From sequence record OL451225.1: DNA of 64,000 bases; one strand, written 5' to 3'. The stretch is from Escherichia phage P896. Both the position numbers and the translations under genes were made by a program. The notes beneath the pieces were generated by a model. That model ran no database searches and had not been told where the DNA came from. It saw nothing but the letters and a program-made list of their open reading frames with translations. Below are positions 5,688-63,020 of the stretch, one piece after another (position 1 is the first letter of the stretch; each line of letters starts with the position of its first letter).

Positions 5688-5695
5688 TATAAATA
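5688..5695 (+). promoter_or_regulatory. T4-type late promoter TATAAATA upstream of gene 13
   Basis: Exact TATAAATA 19 nt upstream of the gene 13 ATG. Confidence 0.6.
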
Positions 5696-45251: not shown

Positions 45252-45422
45252 TTTAGAAGCCTCAATATGAGGTGAATATTTGGTGGACACGTTCTTCTGA
45301 ATTTCACTTCCTTTCGGCAAGTCTCTCAGTTGTAGTCCACCGTTTAGGATTAGCTAACCCAATACACCAGCAAAGCTCTGTATGACATCAACCAATCCAT
45401 ATTATTATTTATAACGCTAATT

Positions 45423-48098: not shown

Positions 48099-48377
48099 TT
48101 AAATTGCTTCGACAACTACCGTTTGTTTCTGGAAGTCCATTTTGCATGAAATAGCCAAAATGTGGTTATCAATTTTAAACGGAACAATTGCAAATGCTGC
48201 ACCAGGCGTGAGTTGAACAGTGATTGCATCAACTGCATCCGGGAACATGATTTCCAGAATAGCAGACAAACGACCATGCACTTTTAGTTCAGTCGACACG
48301 TCGACGCTTTCGTATAGATAATCAGATACAATCTGACTAAAAACTACTTTAACAATTTCAGAATACGTAGGAAACAT
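48099..48377 (-). CDS. hypothetical protein
   Basis: 92-aa ORF downstream of a middle-promoter-like element. Confidence 0.55.
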   Translation of the reverse strand: MFPTYSEIVKVVFSQIVSDYLYESVDVSTELKVHGRLSAILEIMFPDAVDAITVQLTPGAAFAIVPFKIDNHILAISCKMDFQKQTVVVEAI

Positions 48378-48425
48378 TTTCTTTTCTCGCTTAGTTATTT
48401 GGGGTATCCAAAGGACCTAGACCCC

Positions 48426-48450
48426 ATTATAACATAAAATTTTTAAAGCG
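48426..48450 (-). promoter_or_regulatory. middle-promoter-like element
   Basis: Minus strand CGCTTTA (near MotA box), 12 bp, TATAAT, then GGGGTCTAGGTCC. Confidence 0.4.
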
Positions 48451-48666
48451 TTAATGAACGGTATGCACCTTGACATTAACGATAAATCGGTCAATGACTT
48501 CAGTCAGCGGAACGAATTCAACATAATATTCGCCCTTGTATCGTTCGTTGATATCATTGCGCAGTGCAGCCAGGTTGTTGATAAGAGCAGGAGACATATT
48601 CTGCCCTACCAGTTTCTGAAGCTCTTTATAAGCTTCTTCTTCAACTTCATGGTGTTTGTTATACAT
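48451..48666 (-). CDS. hypothetical protein
   Basis: 71-aa ORF. Confidence 0.55.
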   Translation of the reverse strand: MYNKHHEVEEEAYKELQKLVGQNMSPALINNLAALRNDINERYKGEYYVEFVPLTEVIDRFIVNVKVHTVH

Positions 48667-48868
48667 AATGTTCTTCCAAGAAGGCTAAGAGTTCTGGAGC
48701 GGATTTAAAGATACCGCCATCAACCTTGTCTTCACTATCATAATCCATTACATCCAGGCCAATACGTCCATCAGTTAAAGGCCATACGCCGAAGAAAAAG
48801 CATTTACGTTTTTCAATTTCTTCGATTGTACGAAAAATCTTTTCGATATTATTCATAGGGGTTTCCAT
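48659..48868 (-). CDS. hypothetical protein
   Basis: 69-aa ORF. Confidence 0.55.
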   Translation of the reverse strand: METPMNNIEKIFRTIEEIEKRKCFFFGVWPLTDGRIGLDVMDYDSEDKVDGGIFKSAPELLAFLEEHYV

Positions 48869-49572
48869 TTTCTACCTAGTTGCCAATCGGGGTGGCTCAA
48901 TCTAGGGTCATTTTCATCGGTGGTAGAAGATTTCTTGCCTGAAATATGGATAAGCCATTTTCTAGACTTAGCTACTCTTGAATAATTGGCTTTTGCCTCA
49001 TCTGAACGAATCTTACCTTTGTTCGATTCAGATATTTTATTGCCCCATTCAATAATAGCTTCTTCACTCATAAAATCTTTTACATTTTTACCGTACACTG
49101 GATTATTTTCGCCTTTAAATGAATTACCATTTTTAAGGCGGCTTTTTTTGGATTTAAGCCCACTACCAGGCAATCTCTTGCCTTTATTCCATGGTATAAC
49201 ACCGTTTTTGTATCTTTGCTTTTGTGATTCTGAAATTTTTAACGAAGTTTCGGGACTCGAGTTAACATTAATACGATTTTCATTAATGTACTCCCAACCT
49301 CCTTCTCCACCGGGCTTCAAATTGTAATTAGTATCCAATTTTATAAATTCTTTAGTTACTAATTCGGCTTCTAAATCATATGCTTCTTGTTTAGTTTCAA
49401 ATATTTTTATGATTTCTTTAATAAAAGAATCTTTACCATATTTTGATTCAGCATTTTTAAAAGCTGTACCGGAACCTAAATAAGAATCGTTTTCTTCCAA
49501 GGTCTTATGAACCCCTATATAAATTTTATTATTAACCAAACATGTAGTTTTATATACAGTATATTTTTCCAT
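48853..49572 (-). CDS. Seg-like GIY-YIG homing endonuclease
   Basis: Start MEKYTVYKTTCLVNNKIYIGVHKT (GIY-YIG motif) with GGAGGTGA RBS; C-terminal repeats resembling NUMOD3 (IPWNKGK, NPVYGKN, EWGNKISESNKGK). Confidence 0.8.
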   Translation of the reverse strand: MEKYTVYKTTCLVNNKIYIGVHKTLEENDSYLGSGTAFKNAESKYGKDSFIKEIIKIFETKQEAYDLEAELVTKEFIKLDTNYNLKPGGEGGWEYINENRINVNSSPETSLKISESQKQRYKNGVIPWNKGKRLPGSGLKSKKSRLKNGNSFKGENNPVYGKNVKDFMSEEAIIEWGNKISESNKGKIRSDEAKANYSRVAKSRKWLIHISGKKSSTTDENDPRLSHPDWQLGRKWKPL

Positions 49573-49581
49573 TAGAATCAC

Positions 49582-49611
49582 CTCCATAGATATTTATACT
49601 TATCTATGGAG
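49582..49611 (-). promoter_or_regulatory. hairpin sequestering the seg RBS, with late promoter in the loop
   Basis: Perfect 11-bp stem CTCCATAGATA/TATCTATGGAG; minus-strand TATAAATA (49591-49598) spans loop and 3' arm; the 3' arm contains the GGAGG RBS. Confidence 0.6.
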
Positions 49612-49619
49612 ATTTCTAA

Positions 49620-50838
<1,219 letters not shown>

Positions 50839-57985: not shown

Positions 57986-58115
57986 GTTTTCCTCTGTTAT
58001 AAAATGGGGTCATGCTTATAATAACGCATGACCCTGAAGCGGAATCGTATTTATAGAAGGAAGTTAAGCCCAACCATTACGACCAAAAATAAAATGCCAG
58101 CAATTTGAATATTCA

Positions 58116-62351: not shown

Positions 62352-63020
62352 TCAAAGTGCTTGAAGCGTTATTTGACAGTTTTTAACGGTCTCGATGAAC
62401 AATTTACGAGCTTCAAGAGAATCGATATTTAAGATTTTCTTATAGGCATTTAGTTTGGTTGAATACTTTTCCCAAACCAAGTCGTTAGTCTGTTCATCAT
62501 GTTTATTTATAATATCTAAAAATGAATCAAGCAAACAAAACGTTTCAAATGAGATAACATTCGATTGGAGAAGTTTGAAAATATAACTTGTGTTTACTTT
62601 AGTATTATACTCGAAAATCTCTTGAAGCGATTTGACTTCGACTTTCTTACTGAAGTAATAGATATTCTTTATATCATCTTCGTATACTTGTCTAATTCTT
62701 TTAAGTCTGCCAATGTATTCTCTATAAAATATCAGAGCATCGGCATCACTTATATCGCCTATCCATGCATCCTGGTTTGCAACCAGGTTTGACATGAATA
62801 TTAACGTTAATTCTTTAAGAGTGTACTTATCACTAAGCTTTTCGAAAAAATACTTATCGCGGCGTTTTTGATAAGCACTATCGGAGATTCGCATGGTCCA
62901 GTTATATTTGATAATATCATAACGACCCGAAAAATGCTGTTTGATGGATAAGTACAGTTGATATACTGATTTACCATTTATATATCGGTTGTTATTTGGA
63001 GGCATGCGAATCGTAATCAT
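62352..63020 (-). CDS. 59: helicase loader gp59
   Basis: 222 aa; ...YINGKSVYQLYLSIKQHFSGRYDIIKYNW...AWIGDISDADALIFYREYIGRL recognised as T4 gp59-like. Confidence 0.9.
   Translation of the reverse strand: MITIRMPPNNNRYINGKSVYQLYLSIKQHFSGRYDIIKYNWTMRISDSAYQKRRDKYFFEKLSDKYTLKELTLIFMSNLVANQDAWIGDISDADALIFYREYIGRLKRIRQVYEDDIKNIYYFSKKVEVKSLQEIFEYNTKVNTSYIFKLLQSNVISFETFCLLDSFLDIINKHDEQTNDLVWEKYSTKLNAYKKILNIDSLEARKLFIETVKNCQITLQAL

Follow-up and report, generated by a model that had tools for sequence, protein, structure and literature searches.

A gene whose ribosome-binding site is buried in a hairpin raises the question of when, and from which RNA, it can be translated. In Escherichia phage P896 (sequence record OL451225.1), such a gene, resembling the seg homing endonuclease genes, lies between pseT and the cd genes. 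The original prediction for this locus held that the gene encodes a GIY-YIG endonuclease missing from T4, that its GGAGG ribosome-binding site is sequestered in a perfect 11-bp hairpin on read-through RNA, and that a late promoter spanning the loop and 3' arm of this hairpin yields an RNA that begins within the 3' arm and can no longer fold. We analyzed a 64,000-nt stretch of the phage DNA (the window); all coordinates are positions within it, sequence and strand were read directly, and all features of the locus are on the minus strand. Hairpin, promoter box, ribosome-binding site and seg-like gene are all present, and the anatomy is certain. The proposed mechanism is the best explanation for this arrangement and, taken as a whole chain, is very probably correct.

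The seg-like gene occupies 48853..49572 (239 amino acids [aa]; ATG at 49572-49570, stop codon TGA at 48855-48853) and follows pseT, with which it is co-oriented, at a distance of 48 nt. An upstream ATG at 49587, used as the start in a program-made list of open reading frames (ORFs; MEVILMEKY...), was rejected, as it lies inside the stem, has no Shine-Dalgarno (SD) sequence and is missing in homologs; the real start is at 49572 because all homologs begin MEKYTVYK. The SD sequence GGAGG (49585-49581) is separated from the ATG by an 8-nt spacer and lies, except for its last G (49581), in the 3' arm of the core hairpin (49582..49611). This hairpin pairs the 5' arm CTCCATAGATA (49611-49601) with the 3' arm TATCTATGGAG (49592-49582) in 11 perfect bp around the 8-nt loop AGTATAAA (49600-49593). 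A T4-type late promoter box, TATAAATA, is found at 49598-49591, so that its first six bases belong to the loop and its last two to the 3' arm. In both the minimum free energy and the centroid structure, the core belongs to an extended stem (49571..49620; 13 bp, a 2-nt bulge and 7 bp), which begins at the G of the pseT stop codon (TAG, 49622-49620) and covers the SD sequence, the spacer and the AU of the AUG. The lower and middle portions of its 5' arm are made up by a 12-nt leader motif, TTAGAAATCTCC (49608..49619), which contains the anti-SD sequence CUCC.

These elements fold far more stably than expected by chance. The core hairpin reaches -15.3 kcal/mol and makes up 95% of the ensemble (z = -5.3), and the 71-nt leader reaches -24.8 kcal/mol (z = -6.45); in either case, none of 200 shuffled sequences was as stable. 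Late transcription in T4 starts about 6 nt after TATAAATA. By this rule, the late +1 in P896 would fall at about 49585, on the first G of GGAGG and inside the 3' arm, and a late RNA would therefore lack the entire 5' arm. Indeed, the predicted late RNA has next to no structure: its centroid has an energy of 0 kcal/mol, and 197 of 200 shuffles form folds of equal or greater stability. To open positions -14 to +3, a calculated 15.8 kcal/mol is needed in the read-through RNA, compared to 1.6 kcal/mol in the predicted late RNA, in line with sequestration on the former and access on the latter. Going by the size of the ribosome footprint, a ribosome terminating on pseT would cover roughly the lower helix, and the 11-bp core holding GGAG should still form. 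A search of 48700-49800 against Rfam gave no match at E <= 1.

The frequency and spacing of the box fit the predicted late promoter. Within the window, TATAAATA occurs 20 times against 4.3 expected (4.7-fold), a number reached by none of 100 shuffles, which fits the use of T4-type late promoters by this phage. The box-to-ATG distance at the seg-like gene is 18 nt, with the SD sequence 5 nt past the box; at evident late genes of the window, at 5688 and 28994, the distance is 17-18 nt.

We compared the insertion site to related genomes that lack the gene. The window belongs to a Gaprivervirus and is 96-97% identical to SP18, CJ20, VR20 and PSD2001, with SP18 the closest overall. In ECML-359 the junction is empty, and pseT and cd.4 overlap as TAATG; the identity profile of the window against ECML-359 and MN01 shows a gap exactly spanning the insert interval. 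Because of the empty ECML-359 junction, the insert can be delimited to 764 nt, from 49620 to 48857 (48857..49620), comprising leader and seg gene with hairpin and promoter included. Upstream of it lies pseT (49620..50525; 301 aa; Pfam HAD_PNKP, 6e-56, and AAA_33, 7e-21), encoding a polynucleotide 5'-kinase/3'-phosphatase (PNKP), and downstream a cd.4-like gene (48659..48856; 65 aa, MNNIEK...; phrog_2360, 7e-37), the ATG of which overlaps the seg stop codon as ATGA. The insertion thus swaps the pseT-cd.4 TAATG overlap for a seg-cd.4 ATGA overlap (window 48853-48856; position 1881 of locus L003). If seg is translated only late, cd.4 would lose its early translational coupling in P896. In T4, pseT is followed by cd.5 and cd.4, and the endonuclease gene is absent, as had been claimed. 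About 31 closely related Gaprivervirus-like records also lack the cassette.

Other Gaprivervirus-like phages carry different material at this junction. MN01 has one extra small cd.4-like ORF there (L004, 1881-2268); this 65-aa ORF stands in tandem with cd.4, is also seen in TH54-class records and comes without an endonuclease gene. In SP18, the very same pseT/cd.4 junction (window ~49620/48857) is occupied by an HNH/mob-type endonuclease gene (L002, 1795-2559, minus strand of the locus). This gene is encoded on the opposite strand, and its last ~29 codons overlap the end of pseT in antisense orientation. With an HNH gene in SP18 and a GIY-YIG gene in the window, two unrelated endonuclease families have colonized one intergenic point.

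As the final base of the pseT stop codon is also the first of the stem, the hairpin might instead serve pseT, as a terminator or a stabilizer of the mRNA 3' end, with its overlap of the seg ribosome-binding site being incidental. We consider this exceedingly improbable. The stem is not followed by a U-run, and no terminator-like site was detected in 48300-50700, and so none between pseT and seg. In addition, the hairpin is part of the insert, and pseT of the empty-site phages does without it; finally, the stem of every lineage carrying a related gene (see below) involves the SD sequence and/or the AUG, whatever its sequence. Read-through transcription from pseT is the likely source of the RNA on which the hairpin would form.

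The cassette has moved between phage genera. Two Mosigviruses, PNJ-9 (92% aa identity) and WFbE185 (88%), also have it downstream of pseT, and Klebsiella phage EI retains a fragmented, pseudogenized copy. Compared in 60-nt bins to PNJ-9, the cassette of the window is 88-98% identical, whereas pseT and the cd genes are 50-80% identical. Likewise, synonymous divergence (dS) is 0.51 for seg but 1.59 for the adjacent pseT, each of six comparisons gives seg a lower nonsynonymous divergence (dN) than pseT, and dN/dS of seg is 0.08-0.18. Together, the low dN/dS ratios and the low divergence of seg show that the gene has been maintained by selection and was transferred between genera after their divergence. 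The first ~80 nt of cd.4 are 95% identical between PNJ-9 and the window, compared to 71% for WFbE185; the shared start in PNJ-9 could represent a short co-conversion tract, but could also be explained by ordinary mosaicism.

On the other side of the insert, the last ~90 nt of pseT (49620-49710) share 98% identity with SP18 but only 78-80% with the empty-site phages ECML-359 and MN01, while the remainder of pseT is mostly 91-100% identical to the latter two phages, so that the 3' end diverges 3-fold more. The differences there include a change of an Arg codon from CGC to AGG in a DDR motif. We set aside this stretch as a co-conversion or immunity tract, as SP18 has the same allele and a lineage or mosaic effect is possible.

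The encoded protein has the hallmarks of a Seg-type GIY-YIG enzyme. It matches Pfam GIY-YIG (PF01541) with 30.3 bits (cut-off 22.6) and NUMOD3 with 20.8 bits (cut-off 20.4), and falls slightly below the cut-off for SegE_GIY-YIG (PF19835; 22.9 versus 25); in addition, it matches a homing endonuclease family, phrog_314, at 2.5e-43. The GIY-YIG catalytic domain spans residues ~3-95 (49288..49566), the NUMOD3 DNA-binding motif residues 141-162 (49087..49152), and a C-terminal module that defines the lineage residues ~190-237 (48862..49005). Among 27 family members, Y7, Y18, G20, H22, Y31-x-GSG, E68, N84 and GGxGG are invariant, as are G154, N157 and G161 of NUMOD3 in the family alignment. The invariant columns of the C-terminal module follow the pattern A..R.W(L)IH...G....T.D.ND.R....WQ.GRKWK, and this module is presumably a sequence-specific DNA-binding domain. 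While a PDB search with the single sequence gave nothing, a family profile reached the catalytic domain of I-TevI (1MK0/1LN0); in this alignment Y7, Y18 and N84 match Y6, Y17 and N90 of I-TevI, and E68 comes to lie within one residue of E73/E75. An AlphaFold model has a mean predicted local distance difference test score of 82, with ~90 over residues 1-90 and 88-95 over the C-terminal module, and the only confident Foldseek matches in the PDB were again I-TevI 1MK0/1LN0 (probability 1.00, template modeling score 0.63, 92-94 residues). These results support an intact and free-standing homing endonuclease gene of the Seg type, with a predicted GIY-YIG nuclease as its product.

A counterpart of the catalytic Arg27 of I-TevI was not found: the N-terminal domain of the family has no invariant Arg, and the R27 segment aligns to a gap. 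This raises the question of whether the protein is a domesticated or inactive relative, for instance a DNA-binding regulator of the pseT-cd region, rather than a working endonuclease. I-TevI itself also acts as a repressor (PMC2988022), and the fixed genomic position of the gene over many genera would suit such a role. However, T4 SegC and the SegB type likewise lack the Arg and have the invariant H22 and Y31-x-GSG instead, so that the missing residue is a trait of the Seg clade and not a sign of decay; the same Arg-less set (YIG-H, Y-GSG, E, N, GGxGG) is thus shared with SegB, an active endonuclease (PMC2330249). Moreover, the gene is distributed sporadically (family members in ~14 of ~2,977 PNKP-encoding phage records), sister sites are empty, the copy in phage EI has decayed, and the cassette is much more similar between genera than its flanks. 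A mobile element would behave in this way, a fixed host regulator would not, and we regard domestication as very unlikely.

Comparison to homologs revealed that the gene belongs to a Seg lineage tied to PNKP genes. A gene for a PNKP phosphatase lies directly upstream in all 24 family loci checked, which fall into ~16 distinct lineages and come from metagenomes and phages of several genera; wherever the context is readable, the family gene follows 46-57 nt past a PNKP/HAD_PNKP gene. In a first scan based on matches to the C-terminal half, 14 of 15 loci had PNKP upstream, the exception being a 30%-identical outlier (L027), and all five family loci from phage records that were added later have it as well. 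Named carriers are the Karamvirus Ent31, the Gualtarviruses PSTRCR_127 and MP1, the Ishigurovirus ZPAH1 and the 352-kb Asteriusvirus TH47. One IMG/VR contig also carries a family gene after PNKP, and metagenomic family members extend down to 38-40% identity; in two of them, the upstream gene encodes only a 152-154-aa phosphatase. The genes downstream of seg vary among carrier phages. A scan of IMG/VR with the family alignment returned mostly Seg lineages outside the family, with similarity confined to the catalytic domain. These served as a negative control: none of 79 such loci had a PNKP gene within the fetched 1.5 kb upstream. A literature search found no paper on a PNKP-linked Seg lineage. 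The GenBank label "SegD homing endonuclease", attached to the family genes of PNJ-9 (L001, 1929-2651) and PSTRCR_127 (L099, 1489-2205), looks like a misnomer; for PNJ-9, none of the comparisons made lent it support.

The control module of P896 recurs across this family. All family leaders share an ATAAATA box, an SD sequence and a stem that buries the SD sequence and/or the AUG, and nearly all have the TTAGAAATCTCC block after the PNKP stop codon. In the majority of leaders, the ATAAATA takes the form of TATAAATA, while the others have AATAAATA, CATAAATA or a weaker variant; although the stems differ, the box never lies outside the interval that runs from the beginning of the 5' arm to the SD sequence. 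In 12 family leaders, opening the ribosome site is calculated to cost 10-29 kcal/mol in the read-through RNA but 0.8-4.2 kcal/mol in the predicted late RNA. Folding z-scores are negative in all 18 leaders analyzed, among them the SegB type and T4 I-TevI, and range from -1.3 to -10.7.

Two layouts of the module can be distinguished. In leaders of the window type, TTAGAAATCTCC pairs, through its CUCC, with GGAG and also with the spacer, and the box is located in the loop or in the 3' arm. Their upper stems vary in sequence but stay complementary (ATAGAT/ATCTAT, AAAGCC/GGCTTT, CGTAGC/GCTACG, ACAG/CTGT). Accordingly, all six upper-stem pairs show compensatory double changes, and none of 500 shuffles reached the covariation score, in a count made on arms-only constructs from eight lineages with an anchoring of our choice; 85% of cells are paired in the arms-only alignment, compared to 27-46% when the arms are slid against each other. 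Such constructs were used because a MAFFT alignment of full leaders left the 3' arms out of register. In leaders of the I-TevI type, found in L012, Ent31 and Klebsiella phage EI as well as in the SegB type and T4 I-TevI, the box itself acts as the 5' arm, with GAGGTATTTATG as its pairing partner. I-TevI-type leaders keep TTAGAAATCTCC, even though their SD sequence pairs with another 5' arm.

Beyond the window, TTAGAAATCTCC at the PNKP stop codon was also noted in L001, L005, L006, L008, L010, L012-L017 and L098-L102. In the most compact cases, L015 and L102, it overlaps the TTT-TAG terminus of PNKP, and elsewhere there is a TTAG/TTAG duplication.

Sequence resemblance to the T4 I-TevI leader amounts to 29-32 of 40 positions for L012, L013/L099 and Ent31, against shuffled maxima of 28-30, and to 28 of 40 for the window leader, against a shuffled maximum of 29. 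We do not claim homology of these leaders to that of I-TevI, as the values at best slightly exceed those of shuffles and the shared box, SD sequence and ATG may reflect convergence.

A further alternative is that the hairpin silences the gene at all times. The TATAAATA box would then be unused, being tolerated in an AT-rich loop or left over as a relic, and the gene would persist by rare leaky expression. The case of segB could be read in this way, as a hairpin occluding its translation initiation region was predicted yet its authors found no mapped promoter nearby (PMC2330249), and a review marks its late promoter as only predicted (PMC2988022). In addition, a start at 49585 leaves zero nucleotides 5' of the SD sequence. 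Against permanent silencing stand the consistently placed box, or a one-off variant of it (AATAAATA, CATAAATA), in every family leader, the late-gene-like spacing to the ATG, the enrichment of the motif in the window and a predicted late RNA that is less structured than almost all of its shuffles. We deem permanent silencing unlikely and favor a switch from a closed read-through RNA to an open late RNA.

Based on these results, we suggest the following sequence of events. The 764-nt cassette would have entered a Gaprivervirus genome exactly between pseT and the cd.4-like gene, with its own control module aboard. During the early and middle phases of infection, seg would be transcribed passively within the pseT-cd read-through RNA, on which the 20-bp bulged stem would keep ribosomes from loading by burying the SD sequence and the spacer together with part of the AUG. 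Late in infection, RNA polymerase with a gp55-type factor would initiate at TATAAATA, giving an RNA that begins at the SD sequence, lacks the 5' arm and can be translated. The enzyme would presumably cut the pseT 3' region or the pseT-cd.4 junction of co-infecting phages that lack the gene, and repair from the carrier genome may then copy the cassette in.

Several observations, besides the absent Arg27 counterpart, weigh against this scheme. The SD sequence lies at the extreme 5' end of the predicted late RNA, the leader of which measures 13 nt, and this may limit translation; however, the late genes of the window have the same box-to-SD spacing. The closest homologs, PNJ-9 and WFbE185, have 1-2 mismatches in their stems and z-scores of -1.3 and -2.5, and the strength of repression would thus vary. 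The covariation count is subject to the choice of constructs and anchoring described above. Finally, no candidate target or operator emerged: the best 20-mer shared by the leader and pseT plus cd.4 of ECML-359 matches at 16 of 20 positions, which three of 40 shuffles equaled, and the best 20-mer shared with the empty ECML-359 junction matches at 14 of 20, which 65 of 200 shuffles reached. An I-TevI-style operator that resembles the homing site was rejected as unsupported, as these matches are within the shuffled range, a verdict that does not extend to autorepression as such.

The logic of the switch has precedents, although fewer than first supposed. The original prediction had stated that the architecture is the one described for T4 I-TevI and the seg genes. 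This applies to I-TevI and, as a prediction only, to segB, with similar arrangements in I-TevII, I-TevIII and mobE of Aeromonas phage Aeh1, the mechanism being established for I-TevI and mobE; it does not apply to segC, segF and segG, which like several mob genes are promoter-less cassettes (PMC2988022). The same account has been given for I-TevI and for the T4 genes e, soc and 49, in which an inhibitory stem on the long early RNA loses its 5' strand when transcription starts at late TATAAATA promoters (PMC3014915); the latter three are host-beneficial phage genes, not mobile cassettes.

Among these systems, I-TevI shares with the P896 gene the GIY-YIG fold, the burial of the SD sequence and AUG on early and middle RNA, and a late promoter that drops the 5' arm; the leaders of L012, Ent31 and Klebsiella phage EI have the same layout and in part the same sequence as I-TevI (AATAAATAC..GAGGTATTTATG). 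Unlike I-TevI, which is encoded in the td intron, the P896 gene is free-standing and intergenic, so that the need to splice an intron cannot account for a delay of its translation. Furthermore, the I-TevI box is the 5' arm, whereas the box in the window lies in the loop and 3' arm and a separate, upstream anti-SD motif provides the 5' arm. The P896 protein also differs in having no counterpart of Arg27 and an unrelated C-terminal DNA-binding part, and no target-like operator was detected for its gene.

T4 SegB is the closest characterized full-length relative, as judged from a SegB-type gene of the Tequatrovirus OMNI12, with 34.6% identity across 99% of the length. The SegB type has the same catalytic motif set, a similar C-terminal module (W.IH...DP...W..GRK.K) and a leader hairpin that occludes the SD sequence and AUG, with the ATAAATA box as the 5' arm. 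However, segB sits in a tRNA gene cluster and the P896 gene at a PNKP 3' end, with a presumably different target, and the predicted segB promoter is non-consensus, whereas the P896 box is a perfect TATAAATA. Among T4 proteins, SegC matches the catalytic domain best (46% over residues 4-120), but it has a different C-terminal half and resides at site 5.1/5.3, in addition to lacking a promoter of its own. Aeh1 mobE resembles the P896 gene in being free-standing within an early operon and in having its own late promoter and a hairpin that sequesters the ribosome-binding site, and in this case repression was shown experimentally (PMC2988022, PMC3014915); it belongs to the HNH family, however, and is located in ribonucleotide reductase genes.

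A broader proposal, which we offer as speculation and regard as rather doubtful, is that an old, undescribed Seg lineage homes to the 3' ends of phage PNKP genes and has spread in this manner through Tevenvirinae, Gualtarvirus, Ishigurovirus and a 350-kb Asteriusvirus, its cassettes carrying an interchangeable promoter-operator-hairpin module that is shared with I-TevI and SegB. Here, TTAGAAATCTCC would be a possible second functional site; it could, for example, be an operator for autorepression or part of a recognition or immunity determinant.

Some further promoter-like sites were seen in the window. A TATAAATA box at 58048-58055 (minus strand) stands 62 nt before a 751-aa ORF (MQVQKSSGVSQD...); the interval between the box and the ORF (to ~57985) holds a strong GC-rich hairpin, GGGTCATGC...GCATGACCC, and then a T-rich stretch, an arrangement that resembles a late promoter followed by a terminator-like stem, within the early region. 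Two other TATAAATA boxes in the early region, at 45406-45413 and 62504-62511 (minus strand), have no ORF of at least 50 aa starting within 150 nt downstream; the box at 45413 precedes a stable structure of -28 kcal/mol. Upstream of a cd.3-like ORF, a sigma-70-like promoter is present at 48426-48454 (minus strand; TTAACG-17-TATAAT, extended TG, 10/12), in a position analogous to that of the annotated T4 early promoter between cd.2 and cd.3.

While the design of the switch was already known, the PNKP-junction Seg lineage, the conservation of the predicted switch throughout a family by means of different stems and the conserved 12-nt element are new; these findings extend current understanding but do not change it. 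With a perfect TATAAATA inside a perfect 11-bp stem, P896 provides an especially clean natural example of a hairpin-plus-late-promoter switch. The PNKP-tied lineage is tractable for mapping a new target specificity and for learning how an insertion can keep its neighbors coupled in translation, with ATGA in place of TAATG. That the logic has been kept while the stem was rebuilt in several ways suggests that late-only expression is important for such selfish genes in general.

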